Positions 9,601 to 62,897 of a stretch of DNA of 64,000 bases are shown here, piece by piece (the stretch's first letter is position 1; every line of letters starts with the position of its first letter). The translations under genes and the position numbers were made by a program. The stretch is from Bacteriovoracaceae bacterium (GTDB taxonomy: Bacteria > Bdellovibrionota > Bacteriovoracia > Bacteriovoracales > Bacteriovoracaceae), in contig JABIHA010000069.1 in the NCBI GenBank assembly GCA_018649885.1, forward strand, positions 1 through 64,000, written 5' to 3'. A model generated the notes under the pieces. It was not told where the DNA came from, searched no databases, and worked only from the letters and a program-made list of their open reading frames with translations.

Positions 9601-9861
9601 TCAGCCGCCTCCGCCATTGTGTGATCTTGTTTTAATGAATGTCTTGTTAATAGGCACAAGCAGAAAATGAGTTCCGTCGCCCGTTTTTTTCAACTTGTAT
9701 AGTAGGCCGTCTTTGAGTTTTATCTCTCCGATTTTCTCTATTACTAGCTCTTTAAACAGTGTCGTCTTTTGAGGACTGAGGAAATCATCAACTAGTTCTT
9801 CAGCAAAGGAAGTGCTGGCAATAGTTAATAGAAAAAATAAGCAAGAAATAGACTTTTTCAT
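9601..9861 (-). CDS. Small secreted protein ending in HNGGGG
   Basis: Signal peptide MKKSISCLFFLLTIASTSFA; ATGA overlap with the upstream gene; GGGGAG RBS. Confidence 0.75.
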   Translation of the reverse strand: MKKSISCLFFLLTIASTSFAEELVDDFLSPQKTTLFKELVIEKIGEIKLKDGLLYKLKKTGDGTHFLLVPINKTFIKTRSHNGGGG

Positions 9862-10706
9862 TGGATGGTCTCCCCTGAGGTTGCGGTAGGTGTAGGTTTA
9901 GGTGTGGTGTGTTCGAGTGGCAGAAGGTCTGTGAAGGTATCCATAAGACCAACTGAGAAAAAAGGTATATCACCAAAGTTTTGAGGATTATTAATTAATG
10001 AAGTCATCTTTTCATGTAGGTCTCGGTGTAGCTTTACAGCTTCTCTTAAGGCCTTGAGAGTTACTCCTTGAGCACTTACATGAATATAATTTCTATTTTT
10101 TCCAGCATGTGCTGGGTTGTAGAAACGAGCGTAGTTACCAATTTGGAATTTTAAGAGTTTTAAAGTGGTGAAAAAATCAACACCGCTTGCTAGTTTGATT
10201 TTCTTGAATTTCTCGATGAGAATTTCATCTTCAAGGTAGCGATCTAAGACAGTAAGCCCTTTCTCTCCTAAAATTTTCCCAACGCTCTCTCTTGTTGTCC
10301 CTGTATCAAAAGTGGCGAGTACCAGTACAAGGTATTCATCGTAATCAAATAAATTTAGTGACTCAATTTCTTTTGAAAGCACTTTATCACTGTTATAAAG
10401 CACGCTAAAAGTGGACATCAACTCTTTTTTAAGAGGTTCCTTTTGGGAGTCAATAGCACTTTTTAAAGAAGTTTCTTTAGAAAGTCCCTTCAAGAGAATC
10501 AGTACTTTGTTTAAATCTAATTTGCTGGAGCCAGATGATTCTTCCAAAATTTTACCAAGGAAATATCTATCAACCCCTGTGTTTTTTGCAATGGCCCTAA
10601 TTGAAAGGTGTGGTCTTTGACTTCGGTATTCAACTAAAGCGTCCCTGAGAAGCGATCTAAGAGCTTCTGTTTCCATCATTAACATCCTTTTATGATTTAT
10701 TTCCAA
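9858..10706 (-). CDS. TIGR02147/DUF4423-like HTH regulator
   Basis: N-terminal LSIRAIAKNTGVDRYFLGKIL HTH-like segment; size and layout match this Bdellovibrionota-expanded family as recalled. Confidence 0.55.
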   Translation of the reverse strand: MEINHKRMLMMETEALRSLLRDALVEYRSQRPHLSIRAIAKNTGVDRYFLGKILEESSGSSKLDLNKVLILLKGLSKETSLKSAIDSQKEPLKKELMSTFSVLYNSDKVLSKEIESLNLFDYDEYLVLVLATFDTGTTRESVGKILGEKGLTVLDRYLEDEILIEKFKKIKLASGVDFFTTLKLLKFQIGNYARFYNPAHAGKNRNYIHVSAQGVTLKALREAVKLHRDLHEKMTSLINNPQNFGDIPFFSVGLMDTFTDLLPLEHTTPKPTPTATSGETIQ

Positions 10707-29128: not shown

Positions 29129-30135
29129 AAATAGGCCTGGTAAAGTAAGTGAGTGGCATGATCTCTAAAGCCCCCATTGCCTGTCCATCTCTTGCGATCT
29201 TTTCCCGAAATAGTGTGGGATAGCTGCATTTTGTGTTTGCTCTCAAACCAAATATTTAACCCCAAATTTGTATTTGAAAGAGTCGTTTTGGCAGGGCCAT
29301 TTTTGTGAATGCCCTGTCCATGACGAATCGCTATCTCGATTCTCTCAACAGGCCGATATGAAATTTGAGAGGAAAGTGAAGCCTCGGACTTTGCTTTAAG
29401 ACCAAAAAGGTTCTTACCCAAAAGATACTCTGTCTTTAATCTAAAAAACCAAAAATCTAAATCAAATCCTAGGTTGTAATTTTCAAGGCCAGGACCATGT
29501 GACGGATCGGCTCCAGCGTGCTCAGAAAAACCGTAAGCCCCATAAAGATCGAGCTCACCATAGTGATATATGAAAGTCGAGGAGTAACAATAATTTTTCC
29601 CTTTTTGGCCTGTACTTACAACCACTGATTTACCGCAGGCCTCAGAGAGGTGAAAGTAGTATTCAAAATCTTTTATGGGCGCACCTGATATTTCAAGGCC
29701 GGTTGAATTTCCCAGTGAGATTGAAGACGCCGGAGCTTTTGGATAAAATACTCTCTCAAAATAGGGAGTGTAGTGTTCCCTTGAGATCAAATGAGGGAAG
29801 AGACCGAGCTTAATTTGAAAGTGGTCGTTGAAGCGATGTCCCATATAGGCCTGGTCGACTTCAGCTTTTCCTGTGCTGGAATTTGATAAAATATCTCCAA
29901 AATTGATAGTTGCTAGTGAAAAGGTATCAACCTGGCCTAGCTCAAAGCCTAGCATTACTTTAGGGATACTAAACTTGGGGCCCCTTCCTCTCGTGGGGTC
30001 ATTGTAAGCAGAACCTCCACCAGAATCGATTAGGCTTTGTACAAGACCCGTGGGCCTGGCCTTCCAATTCTCGGCAATGACAGTAGAACCAGCTATTGAA
30101 TGTAGAAGTAATAAAATGAAGGAGGTGATGATCAC
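29125..30135 (-). CDS. Porin-like outer-membrane beta-barrel protein
   Basis: Signal peptide, DQAYMG..F...QIKLGLF, C-terminal YQAYF. Confidence 0.7.
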   Translation of the reverse strand: MIITSFILLLLHSIAGSTVIAENWKARPTGLVQSLIDSGGGSAYNDPTRGRGPKFSIPKVMLGFELGQVDTFSLATINFGDILSNSSTGKAEVDQAYMGHRFNDHFQIKLGLFPHLISREHYTPYFERVFYPKAPASSISLGNSTGLEISGAPIKDFEYYFHLSEACGKSVVVSTGQKGKNYCYSSTFIYHYGELDLYGAYGFSEHAGADPSHGPGLENYNLGFDLDFWFFRLKTEYLLGKNLFGLKAKSEASLSSQISYRPVERIEIAIRHGQGIHKNGPAKTTLSNTNLGLNIWFESKHKMQLSHTISGKDRKRWTGNGGFRDHATHLLYQAYF

Positions 30136-39537: not shown

Positions 39538-39873
39538 TCACTTACTTAAAGAAGCTTTGACGAAATCAAGGTAATCCTGCGAAGCGTCAGTGGTAGGGAG
39601 TGCATATATACATGGTGTTTCATAGCTGTGATTTTCGACAATGGCCTTCTCTACCTGGGAGTAAAGATTCCCCGTGCTCTTACAAAGCATGAAGCATTCC
39701 TGTTCATTACACAGCTTACCTTCCCACATATAAAGTGAGCTACCACCAGGGATGATATTGGCATAGGCAATGAGCTTTTTTTCCAGTAGAAGTGAGGCCA
39801 TTTTCTGGGCACTTTTTTCACAGCTGTAGGTGGAGTAAATAACGATCAATTCACAATTTTTCATAGTTTTCAT
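39538..39873 (-). CDS. cutA: Divalent-cation tolerance protein CutA
   Basis: SLYMWEGK, HSYETPCI. Confidence 0.9.
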   Translation of the reverse strand: MKTMKNCELIVIYSTYSCEKSAQKMASLLLEKKLIAYANIIPGGSSLYMWEGKLCNEQECFMLCKSTGNLYSQVEKAIVENHSYETPCIYALPTTDASQDYLDFVKASLSK

Positions 39874-39941
39874 GTGATTAATAATATCTAAAAATCTTAT
39901 GAAATCAAAGCTAGATGTCACAATTCTCAGCGAATGAAAAA

Positions 39942-40041
39942 TATGAGAAAGCAGTGCCCTTAGAGGCCAGCCTTGTGGGCGTGCAACCCCACTCCTCCCT
40001 TAGTTCAAACAACCACAGGCTAACATAATCTGCTTTCCATA
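39942..40041 (-). ncRNA. Candidate structured RNA, IS110 non-coding-end (bridge-RNA)-like, no adjacent transposase
   Basis: Nested stems GAAAGCAG/CTGCTTTC and AGCCTGTGG/CCACAAGGCT enclosing GAACTAAGGGAGGAGT; GC-rich island in an AT-rich gap; family likeness from memory only. Confidence 0.5.
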
Positions 40042-40259
40042 ATAGCTCCTTGCTACCACCAAAAATACAATTAGCAAGAACTGTTAAGAATTTACGCTTC
40101 TTTAATTTCGTCATTTTAATAAAAACCAAACCTTTGAACGTTCAGCTAATCTCCCGTCATGTGCCAAAAAAACTTCCGATAAAATAAAATACAGCTGTCC
40201 AAACTTTTGACGGCCCAATTGCCTAGGCCCCTTACATTCCATAGAACATCCCCAAATAA

Positions 40260-50485: not shown

Positions 50486-50671
50486 ATGTATATCTGCCTT
50501 TGCAGAGGAATTACTGACAAGGATCTTCTTGAGCTCAAAAAGAAAATGAGTAAGAAGCAGATCTATAAAAACCTTGAACTCGGTTCAAGCTGTGGTAGTT
50601 GCATTGGTAAAGCTTTAAATATCCTAGAAAATCCAACTCATCAAAAAAAAGACCCCTCTCCTAAAAGCTGA
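50486..50671 (+). CDS. bfd: Bacterioferritin-associated ferredoxin
   Basis: MYICLC...CGSC directly upstream of bfr. Confidence 0.9.
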   Translation: MYICLCRGITDKDLLELKKKMSKKQIYKNLELGSSCGSCIGKALNILENPTHQKKDPSPKS

Positions 50672-50754
50672 TCATCCCCATTTTTTTCTGCACTTAAATT
50701 TCTAGCTGTGCTACAAACTTTTGTATCAAATTTTTGAATTATAAAGGAATACTA

Positions 50755-51219
50755 ATGAAAGGTAATAAAGAAGTCATACAAGTTCTTAATGAGTCACTAA
50801 CCCGTGAGCTTACTGCCATCAACCAATATTTTCTTCACGCTAGGATCCTAGAAGATTGGGGACTGGGGAAAATGGGAAAGCTTGAATATGATGCTTCGAT
50901 CGATGAGATGAAACATGCAGATGAGCTAATAAAAAGGATTCTTTTACTAGAAGGACTCCCTAATGTTCAAAGAATGGGCAATGTAAATATTGGCCAAAAT
51001 GTAAAAGAAATAATGGAAGCTGATCTTACAGTTGAAAGAGATGCCATACCAGCACTAAAAGCCGGAATTATATTGTGCGAGGAAAAACAAGATTTTGTCT
51101 CACGTACTCTTTTGACTTCTATTCTGGCCAGCGAAGAAGATCATTGCGACTGGCTTGAAACACTTCTAGACCTATACGATAAAGTAGGGGAGCAGAATTT
51201 TCTTCAGTCTCAAATGTAG
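50755..51219 (+). CDS. bfr: Bacterioferritin (heme-binding type)
   Basis: MKG.., ELTAINQYFLH, DEMKHAD (Met52), EEDH. Confidence 0.95.
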   Translation: MKGNKEVIQVLNESLTRELTAINQYFLHARILEDWGLGKMGKLEYDASIDEMKHADELIKRILLLEGLPNVQRMGNVNIGQNVKEIMEADLTVERDAIPALKAGIILCEEKQDFVSRTLLTSILASEEDHCDWLETLLDLYDKVGEQNFLQSQM

Positions 51220-56749: not shown

Positions 56750-57214
56750 ATGTTGGGCCCAGAAGATCTGAAGTTGAGTGCTATTGACTGTAAAAATGGT
56801 GAAGAGGTTGATTTCCTATATCAATTTATTTTTGATCACCATTCGACACCCAAAAACTTATTGCCCACGAAAGAAGAGCTTAACTCACCCTCACTTTTCT
56901 TTTTTAGGGCAGTACTTGATGAGAAGCTCATTGGCATGTCTAGCTACTACAAGGTCACTCCATTTTTGGCGGAAACCCAAAAGACCATAGTCCTTCCCGA
57001 GTTCAGGGGGAAAGGCTTTGGTAAGAAAATCTCCTCACTTATGGAAGATCTTATTAAAAATAGAGGATTCAAGAAAATTCGTTCTGCTATCTATATCCAA
57101 AATCTCAAGATGCTCAAAATCAAATTAGACCAAAGCTATATTATTGAGGGACTTCTAAGGGATCACGATGCTCCTGGGCTTCATGAATATAGTTTGGGAA
57201 AAATCCTCGGCTAA
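56750..57214 (+). CDS. GNAT family acetyltransferase
   Basis: VLPEFRGKGFG motif A. Confidence 0.85.
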   Translation: MLGPEDLKLSAIDCKNGEEVDFLYQFIFDHHSTPKNLLPTKEELNSPSLFFFRAVLDEKLIGMSSYYKVTPFLAETQKTIVLPEFRGKGFGKKISSLMEDLIKNRGFKKIRSAIYIQNLKMLKIKLDQSYIIEGLLRDHDAPGLHEYSLGKILG

Positions 57215-57266: not shown

Positions 57267-57292
57267 TGAAACCTTTTTCCATAAGCCGCGTA
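57267..57292 (+). promoter_or_regulatory. ECF sigma promoter (copy 1)
   Basis: TGAAAC-N16-CGTA. Confidence 0.7.
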
Positions 57293-57298
57293 TTACCT

Positions 57299-57432
57299 AT
57301 GACATAACATCCTTATGCTTTTAATTTGCCCCCCCAAGGCAATTTTGATTGTGAAGGATCTAAAGATGGATTCTTCACATAAAGGCTTACCAGAGACTCA
57401 CGGAGTAGTTACTGGTAGGCCTTTTTATTTTT
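57299..57432 (+). ncRNA. Candidate sRNA, copy 1
   Basis: Three hairpins, the last followed by a T run; paralogous to copy 2 with compensatory changes; no ORF. Confidence 0.7.
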
Positions 57433-57531
57433 CCCCCTACTTCATTTCTAATTTAAATCTGAAATTAAAACACTCCTTAACTAGTTGAATTTACTTGATT
57501 ATTTAAAAGGTTTATTTTATTTCGATTTTTT

Positions 57532-57557
57532 TGAAACCTTTTTCCCTAAGCTTCGTA
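57532..57557 (+). promoter_or_regulatory. ECF sigma promoter (copy 2)
   Basis: TGAAAC-N16-CGTA. Confidence 0.7.
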
Positions 57558-57563
57558 TTATCC

Positions 57564-57693
57564 ATAACACAACATCCTTCTGCTTTCATTTGCCCCCCAA
57601 GGCAATTTAGAATGTGATGGAACTTATGATGGATCCACCACAGAAATGGCCCTCAGAGACTCAAGGAGAGTCCTGATTGGCCCTTTCATATTT
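57564..57693 (+). ncRNA. Candidate sRNA, copy 2
   Basis: Same architecture 265 bp downstream; GACTC-AAGGA-GAGTC apical hairpin. Confidence 0.7.
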
Positions 57694-57848: not shown

Positions 57849-58238
57849 ATGGGGAAAGCTCTTCTGTGCTTTGCGGTCGGTGTTGCTCTTACTACTAATC
57901 TCTACGCTTTAGAATCGGGTATAACCGGAAAAATAAAGCTCACTAAGGCACTTGCAAAGAAGATAGGCAAAAACTCAACTCTCTTTGTTATGGCGAAAAG
58001 AGTAGGTCGCTCAGGTCCTCCTGTTGCTGTAGTAAAAATAAAGTCTCCTGTCTTTCCACAAAAATTTAAAATTTCCCAAAATGATGTGATGATGAAAGGT
58101 CTTCCATTTGAAGGACCATTTATTATTGCTGCCAAATTGTCTCCCAGCGGAGACGCAATGGATGGGATGGCGCGCGGGTCTCACAGAAACCCTGTTCCTA
58201 TTGGAAGTCAGAATATAGAAGTCATTCTTAAAAGGTAA
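57849..58238 (+). CDS. Secreted protein, CcmI/CycH C-terminal-like domain
   Basis: Signal peptide; TLFVMAK...GPPVAV....FP..F.....VM, A(K)LS.SGDA. Confidence 0.75.
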   Translation: MGKALLCFAVGVALTTNLYALESGITGKIKLTKALAKKIGKNSTLFVMAKRVGRSGPPVAVVKIKSPVFPQKFKISQNDVMMKGLPFEGPFIIAAKLSPSGDAMDGMARGSHRNPVPIGSQNIEVILKR

Positions 58239-58285: not shown

Positions 58286-58717
58286 TTAAGTGCAGTGACC
58301 TAAGAGTTGTGATTTCCCTATAGCTCCAATATTACAACCTTTTTCAAAAACAACTTTATAATTAAATGGCATGTTGTGAATCACTTCATTGGCCCCAATC
58401 ATAGCTCCAGGGCCTAGCTCGGTGATTTTTTTATTGGAATGAAAAATTCGAGCTTTTCCTTGCACTATAAGATACGCCACAAGTGGAATCTGCCCCTTAT
58501 CAATTGATACATAATCACTTTTTAACTTGTGGAAATAAGCGAGGTGCTTTTTTGAAAGATAAAAATGAGTGCTTGAATTTATGGCCGCGAACTTGATTCC
58601 CAAAATTCTAGTCAACAAAGAACATTGAATACATACTTTCTCAACTACAAATGCAATTGAAAATAAACTAAAAATAATAATCCCTCCAACAAACAAGTAA
58701 CTCGGTATAAGAAACAT
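58286..58717 (-). CDS. Membrane-anchored cyclic-nucleotide-binding-fold protein
   Basis: N-terminal TM; YLIVQGKARI...ELGPGAMIG. Confidence 0.65.
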   Translation of the reverse strand: MFLIPSYLFVGGIIIFSLFSIAFVVEKVCIQCSLLTRILGIKFAAINSSTHFYLSKKHLAYFHKLKSDYVSIDKGQIPLVAYLIVQGKARIFHSNKKITELGPGAMIGANEVIHNMPFNYKVVFEKGCNIGAIGKSQLLGHCT

Positions 58718-58746
58718 ATTCCCCCCTCCAGGTACGTTACTACTTT

Positions 58747-59205
58747 TTAAAAATGAGATTTATTAGCGTATTGATCTTTTAAACTCTTTTCGTTTTCCAT
58801 GATTTCTTTCACATATTTCTTGTCAAAAAAACAGGCCACAGTGTCGGTCAAAGCCTCGGCTTTAAAGTCAGTATATTCTTCTTCTAAATGACACATGCCT
58901 ATTGTACTACCAGGTCCTAATTCTTTACTGGTGATGGTCCCATCTTTATTTTTTGTGGAAAAATTAATAAGCCCAGATTTTATACAAAAAATTCCATAAT
59001 AAGGGGTCTTAAAATCAATAAGTGCTTGTCCCTTTTTATAAAAGTTAAATATTTTCATCTTGCTATTCAAATCTAATTGGTCCTGGTTAAAACCACAGAA
59101 TATTGATTTCATTAAAACATTGCATTTTGAACACTGTGGAGGAGCATTTTTTTTGATAACAACCCCCTTGCTACTTATACATTGATAAAGATTTTGCTGT
59201 AACAT
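58747..59205 (-). CDS. FNR-like sensory domain without DNA-binding HTH
   Basis: CSKC-x8-C N-terminus, YKKGQ, IKSG, GPGSTIG, AEALTDTVAC; ends before the HTH. Confidence 0.7.
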   Translation of the reverse strand: MLQQNLYQCISSKGVVIKKNAPPQCSKCNVLMKSIFCGFNQDQLDLNSKMKIFNFYKKGQALIDFKTPYYGIFCIKSGLINFSTKNKDGTITSKELGPGSTIGMCHLEEEYTDFKAEALTDTVACFFDKKYVKEIMENEKSLKDQYANKSHF

Positions 59206-59428: not shown

Positions 59429-59839
59429 TTATTTTTTAGAAAGGGTCATAGCAACGAGGCATACTTCAATATTGGGGTCTGCTTTGGATTGGAGTACTTC
59501 AAATTCGCCTCCGATTTTTTTAAGAATATGTCTGTCGTATTCCATTAAGCGATGGCAGGCGGACAAATCTCCACTTGCTGTCACGGGGCACTTACCTAGA
59601 ATTTGGGCATATACCTTATTTTCATCATGGTGAGTGATCGGGACAAATTTCTTGGAAGGAAACATTCTTTGCCACTCATTACCCAATTGTTCTAAATCAT
59701 TTGCTCTTCGAGCTCTTTTTACCAGCATTGTTAAATTGGCAAATGCACGCATAGTATACTTTGAGACAAGCTGAAGCCTGGGATTTTTGGAGAGGGCCCC
59801 AAGGAGGTTTAAAAATAAATTAAAGGTAAATTTACTCAT
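59429..59839 (-). CDS. Hypothetical protein with three Cys (V4R/ATC-hydrolase-like), coupled to the second bfr
   Basis: CPV...ACHRLM...VC; TAATG stop/start overlap. Confidence 0.65.
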   Translation of the reverse strand: MSKFTFNLFLNLLGALSKNPRLQLVSKYTMRAFANLTMLVKRARRANDLEQLGNEWQRMFPSKKFVPITHHDENKVYAQILGKCPVTASGDLSACHRLMEYDRHILKKIGGEFEVLQSKADPNIEVCLVAMTLSKK

Positions 59840-60306
59840 TACATTTGTGATTGTTGGTAATTCTGAATACCAATCTTTTCCATCAGCTCAAGATTTGTTT
59901 CAAGCCAATTAATATGATCTTCTTCTGTTTCTTTTAAAAGAGTAAGAAGTATTTCTCTAGTAACAAAATCGCCCTCTTTTTCACAAATTTGAATGCCACT
60001 TTCGAGCTTTTTGGCCACTACAAGCTCAAAATCGAGACCCTGTGAAAACATGCTCTTGACATCAGTAGCGATCTCAATAGGGACTCTTTTTGAAAGAATC
60101 GGAGTTCCTTCTAGTAGTAAAATCCTTTCAATTAATTTGGTGGCATGGATATTTTCATCATCTTTTTCATGGTCAAATTGTTGGTAGAGCTTAGTTAGAC
60201 CCCAGTCTTTGTACATTCTGGAGTGAACAAAGTAGACATCAATGGCTGTCAGCTCAAGGCTTAATAGCTCATTTAAGTGGTTTATGATATTTTGATTTCC
60301 CTTCAC
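59839..60306 (-). CDS. bfr: Bacterioferritin-family subunit lacking heme-ligand Met52
   Basis: ELTAID.YF.HSRM, DENIHA, TEEDH. Confidence 0.9.
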   Translation of the reverse strand: MKGNQNIINHLNELLSLELTAIDVYFVHSRMYKDWGLTKLYQQFDHEKDDENIHATKLIERILLLEGTPILSKRVPIEIATDVKSMFSQGLDFELVVAKKLESGIQICEKEGDFVTREILLTLLKETEEDHINWLETNLELMEKIGIQNYQQSQM

Positions 60307-61355: not shown

Positions 61356-61967
61356 CTAACATCTTCTCCATTGAATTTTGTAAATGATACCTGCATGAAA
61401 ATCTGCTGAGTCCACAGTGGCCAGTGCATCATCTTTATTTCTATTTGACCTAACTAGCATACTGGCGTTGACACGCAAATTGACATCATCCCCACAACGA
61501 GACCATGACAGTGCTGCTATCCCGATTGGATTGTTTAAGAAATAATCATTGTCAAATCCACCTCTGAAAGTTCTTCTAAAACGAGGGCCTCTTGTTCCCG
61601 CAAAAAAGTATTCAGTACTAAATCGGGCCATGCCGCCAGGAGGAACCGAAACGAAACCACGATAATCCACTTGGATGATAGAAATGCTAAGTCCTTGGGG
61701 AACATGAACTGGTACTGCAATATTACAGCCTTTTCTTGCGATTCGTCTTGCTCGTGGGCCACCACCTGCTTCAACAACAAACGAGTCAAAAAGAAGACTC
61801 AGCTCTTTTCTGTCTGGGCTTAGTGTTGCTGATACCGATCCTCCAGGGCAACCTGTTCCGCCGTAACCTGGCAGACCTAGTTGAATATCATTGGGGTCAG
61901 CAAAAGCAGATGTGCCAAAAGCACCAGCAAATACAAATAGTATTAATTTTTTAACAAAACTTTTCAT
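61356..61967 (-). CDS. DUF4360 family secreted protein
   Basis: YGGTGCP.GS, LLFD.F, RK.C, DYRG, WS.CG, DSAD, WRRC. Confidence 0.88.
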   Translation of the reverse strand: MKSFVKKLILFVFAGAFGTSAFADPNDIQLGLPGYGGTGCPGGSVSATLSPDRKELSLLFDSFVVEAGGGPRARRIARKGCNIAVPVHVPQGLSISIIQVDYRGFVSVPPGGMARFSTEYFFAGTRGPRFRRTFRGGFDNDYFLNNPIGIAALSWSRCGDDVNLRVNASMLVRSNRNKDDALATVDSADFHAGIIYKIQWRRC

Positions 61968-62153
61968 ACAAACACTCCCTTAAATTTAAAGGCAATATTG
62001 CCTAACAATTATTTCCTGTATTGATCAATTTCCTAAGTGCTATCAATCATAAATTTTTATCTACATTTTTTTTAAATCCTTTGCTATCAATTGCAAGTCG
62101 TATCGAGAGAATACAAAACAGAAAAGATATATTTAAAAAACTAGGAGTTGCAA

Positions 62154-62897
62154 ATGATAAATGGCATAAAAAATTATAATCGTGGTACAAAAATAAAATG
62201 TATTCTATTAATTTTAACTTTATGTATTCCTGGGATTTCATATGCTCAGAATAAATTTACTTTTGATCAACCAGTATTGAGAGGGACTGGTTGTCCCCGG
62301 GGAACCACATCAGTGATTATGAGTCCAGACAATCAGGAAATTACTTTGCTATTCGATAGATTTTCAGCAGAGGTTCCACAAGTAGATGGTGACAATGATA
62401 ATGACTTAGTTACATCTGAAAATCCAGGTAGAGGCAATCGTCGAAATAAGAATCGTTCACATAAAGTATGTAATATGATTGTCTCTGCCAGTCTTCCTGA
62501 AATGAGGAGAATCGTGGGACTAGGTATATCCATTGATTTTCGCGGTAGTACAATTATTGAAAACAATGCACGTGCAGTTTTTCGTGCAGTTTTACTTAAA
62601 TGGAAAGGTCCCAGAGGAAAGCGTGGCAAACGTCATGAAGTTCATCGCCGCGCCTGGCGTGGCCAATTTGTTAATGACAATTGGTTTATTAATCTGCATA
62701 AATTGACCAAGCTACGCAGTGGCTGTTCAAAAAAACGTGAACGAAAGGTAGTCTTTAAGCTGAGAAATATCATTATGGCGTCTATACCTAAGCGAGTTGA
62801 TGCAACTAACGCATCCGCTTTAATTACACTAGACTCTCAGGATATTTCTGGAAAAATGAAATTTAGGGTGAGGACAGCTCCATGTCGAAATCTCTAG
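62154..62897 (+). CDS. DUF4360 family secreted protein (divergent paralog)
   Basis: GTGCPRGT, LLFD.F, K.C, DFRG, S.C, DSQD. Confidence 0.82.
   Translation: MINGIKNYNRGTKIKCILLILTLCIPGISYAQNKFTFDQPVLRGTGCPRGTTSVIMSPDNQEITLLFDRFSAEVPQVDGDNDNDLVTSENPGRGNRRNKNRSHKVCNMIVSASLPEMRRIVGLGISIDFRGSTIIENNARAVFRAVLLKWKGPRGKRGKRHEVHRRAWRGQFVNDNWFINLHKLTKLRSGCSKKRERKVVFKLRNIIMASIPKRVDATNASALITLDSQDISGKMKFRVRTAPCRNL

Follow-up and report, generated by a model that had tools for sequence, protein, structure and literature searches.

What does the tandem repeat lying between a GNAT acetyltransferase gene and the gene of an exported Ig-like protein encode? The repeat is found in the window, i.e. the whole stretch of 64,000 nucleotides of Bacteriovoracaceae DNA that was analysed. 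It had been read in a first-pass annotation as a pair of stress-induced sRNAs under the control of an ECF sigma factor, which may combine base-pairing seeds with CsrA titration. From the evidence given below, the twins are very probably a real and undescribed pair of ECF-driven sRNA genes, the transcripts of which are predicted.

Two tandem units of ~130 nt each and 265 bp apart were observed, and their landmarks lie where they had been placed: TGAAAC at 57267 in copy 1 and 57532 in copy 2, the end of CGTA at 57292 and 57557, AACATCCTT at 57306 and 57571, ACGGA at 57400 and AAGGA at 57663. When the 169-nt unit was compared by BLAST with the 5.45-Mb genome, just two copies were found (78.7% identity, E 9e-31) and the next match had an E of 0.19, which confirms the proposed duplication of a ~165-bp unit at a 265-bp period. 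The copies agree at 27/32 positions of the promoter (84%) and 103/134 of the RNA (77%), whereas identity of the flanks is 32/61 upstream (52%) and 40/77 downstream, for shuffle means of 0.46-0.49. Since promoter and RNA are conserved between flanks that are near chance, selection has acted from the -35 element to the U-tail. The features of the locus are as follows.

56750-57214, + strand: upstream neighbour, GNAT acetyltransferase (Pfam PF00583)
57267-57295, + strand: ECF-type promoter of copy 1, with -35 TGAAAC, T-tract and -10 CGTA(TTA); among the five top-scoring sites of the genome
57299-57432, + strand: predicted sRNA of copy 1, ~134 nt, start set from the promoter spacing; fold z -5.6
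57306-57321, + strand: 5' tail of copy 1, with conserved AACATCCTT and TGCTTT blocks; anti-SD-like, complements the CsrA-type site AAGGAUGUU (from the alignment)
57326-57342, + strand: hairpin 1 of copy 1, predicted to be the main seed; CCCCCAA loop on an invariant stem
57350-57379, + strand: stem 2 of copy 1; its two ANGGA motifs are for the most part paired
57381-57432, + strand: terminal hairpin of copy 1, with ACGGA as apical loop (57400-57404) above a 13-bp basal stem, then a U-rich tail; putative intrinsic terminator
57532-57560, + strand: ECF-type promoter of copy 2, 27/32 as in copy 1, with changes in the spacer and after the -10 element
57564-57693, + strand: predicted sRNA of copy 2, ~130 nt; fold z -3.5; 86 bits with a model built from copy 1 only
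57571-57586, + strand: 5' tail of copy 2, AACATCCTT unpaired, TGCTTT
57590-57605, + strand: hairpin 1 of copy 2, CCCCAA loop
57613-57642, + strand: stem 2 of copy 2
57643-57693, + strand: terminal hairpin of copy 2, AAGGA loop (57663-57667), weak U-rich tail
57849-58238, + strand: downstream neighbour, exported CycH Ig-like domain protein (Pfam PF23892)

The locus is not an assembly artefact, as independent assemblies reproduce it letter for letter. It was found on two metagenome contigs with 100% identity over 3299 and 2868 bp, and one further contig, from a run not flagged as a possible source, covers both copies with zero differences. No variants were observed at the locus in four DNA sequencing runs, and the eight runs that contain at least half of its words are marine metagenomes, two of which may be the source; no RNA run is among those listed, a result without bearing on expression. 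The gap had been described as ORF-free; this is mostly so, but a 57-codon ORF crosses copy 1. Copy 2 does not preserve this ORF, and Pfam gave no match for it. Neither tRNA nor tmRNA was detected by ARAGORN between 50000 and 64000. Nothing ties the GNAT gene to the RNA system, and among 10 loci it has distant matches and no close relative. Elsewhere in the window, a Bfd-like small protein is encoded with a bacterioferritin-like gene (50486-51219) and a second bacterioferritin-like gene lies 9 kb off (59839-60306), all of them recognised by eye; two tandem cNMP-binding-domain genes and two divergent DUF4360 genes are also present (58286-59205 and 61356-62897). The gene content, TIGR02147 and DUF4360 genes included, agrees with a Bacteriovoracaceae-like host. 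On C84, two oppositely oriented arrays of a TGTACT-N-GTAGGGA-type repeat occupy a non-coding gap at ~39600-40200 (L097:600-1200), about 1.5-2 kb from a ParA-like gene; these are possibly centromere- or iteron-like sites.

By which factor would the twins be transcribed? The string TGAAAC-N16-CGTA, previously taken as an ECF consensus, is kept exactly and at the expected coordinates in both copies. In this bare form it is not rare, with 8 genome sites for 4.9 expected and 2-6 at other spacings, so that the evidence is carried by the extended motif TGAAACYTT-N13-CGTATTA. The latter occurs at five genome sites. Two of them belong to the RNA units and two to TIGR02147-family genes, and the fifth, on contig C43, lies at the 5' end of an ECF sigma gene. 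These five score 26-29 bits and the next site 16.6; the matrix was built from the same five sites, which makes it circular for them and informative for the gap below. The C43 sigma gene is followed by that of a putative membrane anti-sigma and by a DUF3106 gene. The protein is ECF by superfamily and lies above no named-family cut-off among the 25 best matches listed.

In three of seven orthologous sigma genes the motif was detected by script, in three more it was recognised by eye (GCAAC or AAAAC variants), and in one it is missing. Four orthologs keep it without a start codon at the -35 element, indicating that it is more than codons for MKLL, although one motif match in a relative is an MKLL-type coding coincidence. 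The strict motif is present in 4/237 family genomes, the reversed control giving 1 match overall. In relatives it was observed upstream of the sigma gene and of exported or lipoprotein-like genes, which points to envelope stress; this is probably the signal to which the C43 sigma responds. The -35, T-tract and CGTA of the twin promoters fit the pattern described for Bacillus subtilis sigmaW/sigmaV in PMC5758882, and the RpoE-like factors of Bdellovibrio are treated in PMC3464611. The ECF-type reading of the promoters is well supported by the five extended sites, one of them at an ECF sigma gene with motif-keeping orthologs, and the twins are predicted to be two of five outputs of the C43 sigma.

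Several observations were made on this group of promoters. At C43:18571-18630 (L027:1501-1560) there is an overlap between the putative autoregulatory promoter and the first ATG of the ECF sigma frame. The induced transcript must therefore use a later Met (after DEEL) to begin translation, and several sigma orthologs are arranged in this way too. The remaining two promoters, C109:14307 and C134:47971 (L108, L109), precede TIGR02147/DUF4423 helix-turn-helix proteins. A gene of the window that resembles these (9858-10679, - strand), which matched neither family, has an RBS complementary to the RNA tail. In the relative G030, the same promoter was found on the - strand of C115 (L206:1368-1529) before an unrelated orphan RNA candidate of ~130 nt with two hairpins (z -3.8), which suggests that C43-type sigma factors recruit sRNAs repeatedly.

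The next question is whether the transcribed units would fold as RNAs. The predicted fold of each begins with a 5' tail, after which come a C-rich hairpin, a central stem and, last, a long terminal hairpin. Compared with dinucleotide shuffles, the fold z-scores are -5.6 and -3.5 on the + strand for copies 1 and 2, vs -3.0 and -2.1 on the - strand. A minus-strand reading, with AAGGAUGU in a hairpin loop, was rejected, as promoter, U-tail, G-U pairs and z-scores favour the + strand. In copy 2, 28/32 pairs of copy 1 are kept (P 0.009 with random columns, 0.028 with the same columns); the 32 pairs include 2 compensatory, 3 one-sided, 3 broken and 1 gapped. Covariation on the two sequences is non-significant (132/500 shuffles), and over all shared short helices compensatory pairs show no excess over chance (6 vs 6.8).

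Most of the structural elements proposed earlier were recovered, some of them in part. The TTGCC/GGCAA hairpin with a C-rich loop is present in both copies with an invariant stem and an unpaired loop. As for AACATCCTT, described as unpaired in each copy, this holds for copy 2; in copy 1 part of it is paired and CAUCC alone lies in the loop. Stem 2, for which compensatory and consistent changes had been noted, has one of each but also one broken pair. Both terminal loops are found, the T-rich tail that should follow them being weak in copy 2. A simple terminator scan called neither terminal hairpin; it called hairpin 1 of copy 1.

What could such RNAs pair with? The C-rich loop had been proposed as a seed for Shine-Dalgarno sequences. 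An accessible loop is conserved between the copies (CCCCCAA/CCCCAA, unpaired), and the complement of the hairpin 1 loop and 3' arm is CCTTGGGGG. CCTT precedes 8/183 RBS-like G5 runs vs 23/3097 other G5 runs, which ranks it top of 192 prefixes with P=2.1e-4, several seeds having been tried in these base-pairing statistics. The enrichment is weaker relative to non-coding G-runs (8/484, P 0.044; 6/482 once the RNAs' own antisense is removed, P 0.018). The proposed seed has found statistical support in the enrichment of CCTTGGGGG at G-run RBSs, at P 2e-4 to 0.04 depending on the control. No enrichment was seen for CC followed by any other dinucleotide (7/183 vs 122/3097), an observation that speaks against a generic cis hairpin.

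The predicted loop-target duplexes comprise 9-12 contiguous pairs across the Shine-Dalgarno sequence. One target, on C1, is porin-like (TM 0.73-0.76 to porin clusters), another contains a pectate-lyase-like domain and one is, as we presume from its sequence, PRPP synthetase. Predicted target leaders also lie on C21 (two genes), C99, C101 and C120. The C106 loop match is doubtful, being opposite a 611-codon frame, and four of the targets align with one another at just 22-29%. Hydrophobic N-termini were found in 7/8 CCTT-prefixed genes. This export bias is not specific to the prefix, because 99/183 genes with a G-run RBS (54%) already possess such N-termini, vs 31% of all predicted genes; in the same way, the TT prefix was not associated with them (12/17 vs 33/66, P 0.17). 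In an accessibility-aware scan of 3906 predicted starts, taken from a crude in-house gene caller and run with no shuffled control, hydrophobic N-termini were predicted for 12 of the 20 best-ranked genes, their overall share being 31% (P 0.007). The top two are one loop target and one tail target, an S49 peptidase (C145).

Leaders of this type were also searched in relatives. In G016 (66% complete), 2/7 sites are RBS-like and lie on exported proteins, and no homolog of the RNA was found there. No RBS-like leader was observed in G030 (0/11 examined), G020 (0/2) or G006 (0/10); G007 gave 0/10 by script, one site looking RBS-like by eye. The high CCTTGGGGG count of G006 was rejected as a sign of targets, since it is due to high GC and 0/10 loci are RBS-like. 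As for the 5' tail, taken alone it was not superior to 12 shuffles, and no bias towards signal peptides was seen. Its word AAGGATGTT is weakly raised at RBSs (5 vs 1.8 expected, rank 4/256). A raw enrichment of AAGGATGTT near starts (7 vs 0.6) was discarded, as it is mostly gone once conditioned on AAGGA. In G000 the AAGGATGTT pattern is as frequent as its reversed control (12 vs 13), and similar AAGGATGTT counts were obtained in relatives that lack the RNA.

Neither Hfq nor ProQ and Jag were found in G000 (92% complete), and Hfq was not found in 5/5 relatives that are 98-100% complete. Taken together, it is somewhat probable that the twins are sibling sRNAs which act by base pairing as the repressor arm of an envelope-stress ECF sigma, and that they dampen the synthesis of outer-membrane and secreted proteins. 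Once the C43 sigma is released, probably by envelope stress, each RNA would be transcribed from its own promoter as far as the terminal hairpin. The invariant CCCC(C)AA loop would nucleate on G-run Shine-Dalgarno sequences of CCUUGGGGG type, and pairing would then zip into the 3' arm of hairpin 1 over 9-12 bp, so that translation of outer-membrane and secreted proteins would be blocked. The anti-SD 5' tail may serve as a second seed. Hfq would not be used, and the single looped ANGGA may bring in CsrA as a helper or stabiliser rather than act as a sponge. It is from the duplication, the selective conservation, the fold, the promoter motif and the loop-complement statistics, all obtained in this analysis, that we infer transcription, the inducing signal, pairing and repression.

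Could the RNAs instead be RsmY/RsmZ-like sponges that mainly titrate CsrA? A csrA gene was indeed found in the host, at C57:29483-29638 (E 5e-25), where it adjoins fliW in the flgK-flgL region. Each copy contains three ANGGA motifs vs 0.3 in shuffles (P 0.006, 0.003), the terminal loop C-ANGGA-G is present in both and variable at N alone, and another sponge candidate of the genome also has the motif in its terminator loop. However, only the terminal motif, the one described earlier as looped, is unpaired, as the other two of the three in each copy are paired within stem 2, and plain GGA shows no excess (3 vs 1.2, P about 0.1). The long, stable stem 2 differs from the CsrA-selected hairpins reported in PMC7652899, which mostly have at most 4 pairs. 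No Csr/Rsm match was found in Rfam, FliW is present, and the invariant C-loop and tail would be left unexplained. Because two of the three ANGGA motifs are buried, csrA adjoins fliW and better sponge candidates exist elsewhere, titration, which was part of the initial proposal, is not supported as the main function and is considered unlikely in that role.

These better candidates are two CsrB/RsmY-like RNAs, much better than the twins, that were found in a genome scan on C83 and C72. The C83 candidate (~63700-64150, + strand; L095:1200-1653) is a CsrB-like non-coding stretch of ~450 nt after a pentapeptide-like ORF. Five GAGC-A(G/A)GAA-GCTC-type hairpins alternate in it with CAAGGATGAA, together with more GGA loops, a GCAAGGATGTGC motif and a terminator. 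Its only Rfam match is a sub-threshold one to RsmY (18 bits vs 57), and none of its matches in 120 family genomes is convincing, one of the two short ones having been inspected and found to be an RBS/coding region. The C72 candidate (~29575-29745, + strand; L096:776-946) is RsmY/RsmZ-like, measures ~170 nt and overlaps the 3' end of an ORF. At least six ANGGA motifs were counted in it, several in short hairpin loops, and its terminator has an AAGGATG loop; it is below the Rfam threshold. Besides flgL, seven flagellin-family genes were seen (C73, C35, C94, C57, C134), several with multiple GGA motifs in their leaders. In Bdellovibrio, CsrA, which is little studied, represses a flagellin reporter (PMC13443453). 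FliW is described as anti-correlated with BarA-UvrY-driven sponges (PMC4682653 and PMC7652899), and PMC4682653 left open whether FliW-encoding species also use inhibitory RNAs, a question that CsrB/RsmY-like candidates in a FliW-bearing genome touch.

The sponge candidates lead to another possibility, namely that the 5' tail of the twins pairs with CsrA sites. It would bind the AAGGAUG/GGAAGC units of the CsrB-like C83 RNA, and so neutralise this sponge, or compete with CsrA on mRNA leaders, while the C-loop would silence exported-protein mRNAs. The tail AACAUCCUU complements the CsrA-type site AAGGAUGUU exactly. Genome-wide, AAGGATG is most densely clustered in the C83 RNA (6 in 400 nt, the next locus having 3), and the repeat unit of this RNA could pair in two parts, one with each conserved block of the tail. 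When the top 25% of windows are averaged, the tails do better than shuffled ones (P 0.013, 0.02), but the top single site is non-significant (P 0.07, 0.18) and the values for C72 are mixed (P 0.03-0.17). One flagellin leader ranks 8th of 3906 for both tails when accessibility is ignored. The energies are modest (-14 to -17 kcal/mol before opening costs), AAGGA would be matched by any anti-SD tail, and AAGGATGTT reaches only 5 vs 1.8 at RBSs, with similar counts in relatives lacking the RNA; the C83 and C72 RNAs are, moreover, candidates themselves. This reading is given a small probability. If true, it would place an anti-sponge in a FliW-bearing, Hfq-lacking bacterium, from a group in which CsrA is believed to be under the control of protein rather than RNA.

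A cis-acting role is quite improbable. The units would then be tandem leaders (riboswitch or attenuator) of the CycH Ig-like gene, which lies on the same strand 155 nt downstream and for which no sigma-70 promoter was found on the + strand. The weak U-tail of copy 2 fits this idea, as does a GCUUU/AAAGG-type pairing that can close the 5' part before the terminator is complete. Nevertheless, a promoter is kept in each unit, so that the second would bypass the first as a leader. Among the orthologs of the CycH Ig-like gene, 29 of 42 loci were examined and none has the RNA, the ECF promoter or common neighbours (element in 0/29), and known aptamers of Rfam gave no match. An apparent compensatory change was noticed in an alternative outer helix, but this helix was discarded, its probability being <0.001 in full-length RNAs.

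The range of the twin RNA is one lineage and two sequences. The earlier statement that no described family is known for them agrees with Rfam, where only 3 matches at E<=5 were found between 55000 and 60000, none of them Csr/Rsm and all far below the gathering score. In 60 relatives, the best non-self BLAST match is 27 nt long (E 0.0017), and a promoter-plus-seed pattern was found in 0/200 family genomes. Covariance model R1 gave a best E of 0.19 in 4 relatives. With model R2, 5 weak matches (E 0.008-0.037) were obtained in 148 family genomes and 1 (E 0.003) in 80 further ones, two sets which together make 228/236 other family genomes and, judging from the genome numbering, do not overlap. On inspection the weak R2 matches have neither the promoter nor the three-hairpin layout, and they are about as numerous as expected by chance. 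The covariance search suggested in the first-pass annotation thus yielded no homolog with conserved structure in about 228 family genomes. In parallel, a metagenome pattern search returned 16 stretches, of which 2 are identical copies of the locus and 14 are unrelated, and 30/44 CCCCCAAGG sites examined in 4 relatives include no sRNA-like hairpin with the ECF-type promoter.

The restriction to one lineage, without homolog in about 228 other family genomes, and the non-significant covariation would also suit a non-functional tandem duplication or the remnant of a mobile element. This is very unlikely, as conservation has sharp limits at the -35 element and the U-tail, and both promoters are intact. 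The two copies are adjacent and the only ones, the 25 longest of 71 listed pairs include no terminal inverted repeats, no transposase lies next to the units, and 0 matches were found in phages, plasmids and viral contigs. A match to a MITE or transposon-end family had been named as one outcome that would overturn the sRNA reading; neither dispersed copies nor end-to-end inverted repeats were seen among those listed. Finally, small peptides or antitoxin RNAs of a type I/type III toxin-antitoxin system are highly improbable: AAGGA/ATGGA followed by ATG stands at the same place in both copies and opens 40 and 15-16 codons, but the sequences are radically different (MDSSHKGLPE vs MDPPQKWPSE) and unequal in length, stem 2 encloses the start region, neither strand has a conserved hydrophobic ORF, and the neighbours encode a GNAT and an Ig-like protein.

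Repressor arms that couple an ECF sigma to sRNAs are described in gamma- and alphaproteobacteria, and none was listed for Bdellovibrio-like bacteria in the literature searched. If the reading as base-pairing repressors is true, the same logic would have arisen independently without Hfq or ProQ, and 2/5 promoters of the C43 sigma would be spent on repressor sRNAs, i.e. a familiar strategy with a new RNA family. As sigma, promoter and named target leaders come together, the element can be rebuilt in a laboratory strain.

How do the twins compare with known systems? The sigmaT of Caulobacter crescentus is an ECF factor. GsrN of this organism is likewise under an alternative stress sigma (sigmaT) and recognises mRNA leaders via a C-rich loop, as reported in 10.1101/344820. 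It shares neither sequence nor an Rfam match with the twins, is processed and activates its described targets (10.1101/344820), whereas Shine-Dalgarno pairing by the twins predicts repression; a tandem pair is not part of GsrN's description in that source. LhrC1-5 of Listeria monocytogenes are multicopy siblings as well, 111-114 nt long, envelope-stress-induced and with Hfq dispensable, and their C-rich motifs, in a loop and in single-stranded regions, pair with G-rich sequence upstream of the start codon, opening a stem (PMC4132741). On the other hand, LhrC is described as driven by the two-component system LisRK, with three UCCC motifs, in a Gram-positive host (PMC4132741), and shows no homology to the twins. 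The loop motif of the twins is CCCCCAA/CCCCAA and not UCCC as in LhrC.

MicA and RybB are sigmaE-dependent porin-repressing sRNAs, and the seeds of such sRNAs are not known to be C-run loops. In the case of VrrA, sigmaE drives an RNA of ~140 nt that represses an outer-membrane protein mRNA, Hfq being not strictly needed according to PMC2628432. VrrA, MicA and RybB belong to gammaproteobacterial, Hfq-bearing hosts, while the twins have no Rfam match and predicted targets.

The Csr/Rsm sponges, as presented in PMC7652899 and PMC4682653, resemble the twins by an RsmY-like size, ANGGA motifs with one in a hairpin loop, and a CsrA-bearing host. They differ in having many accessible motifs where the twins have one within long stable stems, and in BarA-UvrY control where the twins have an ECF promoter and a host with FliW. 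SR1 of B. subtilis is a base-pairing sRNA in a FliW-CsrA organism and binds CsrA (PMC6546359); it is a precedent for the predicted role of the looped ANGGA as a CsrA helper site, but is not homologous to the twins and is regulated differently. In Bdellovibrio, eight attack-phase sRNAs, presented in PMC3627812 without known targets, can be set beside the twins by description only. While a member of none of these families and without an Rfam match, the pair resembles GsrN, LhrC and VrrA in its predicted way of working.
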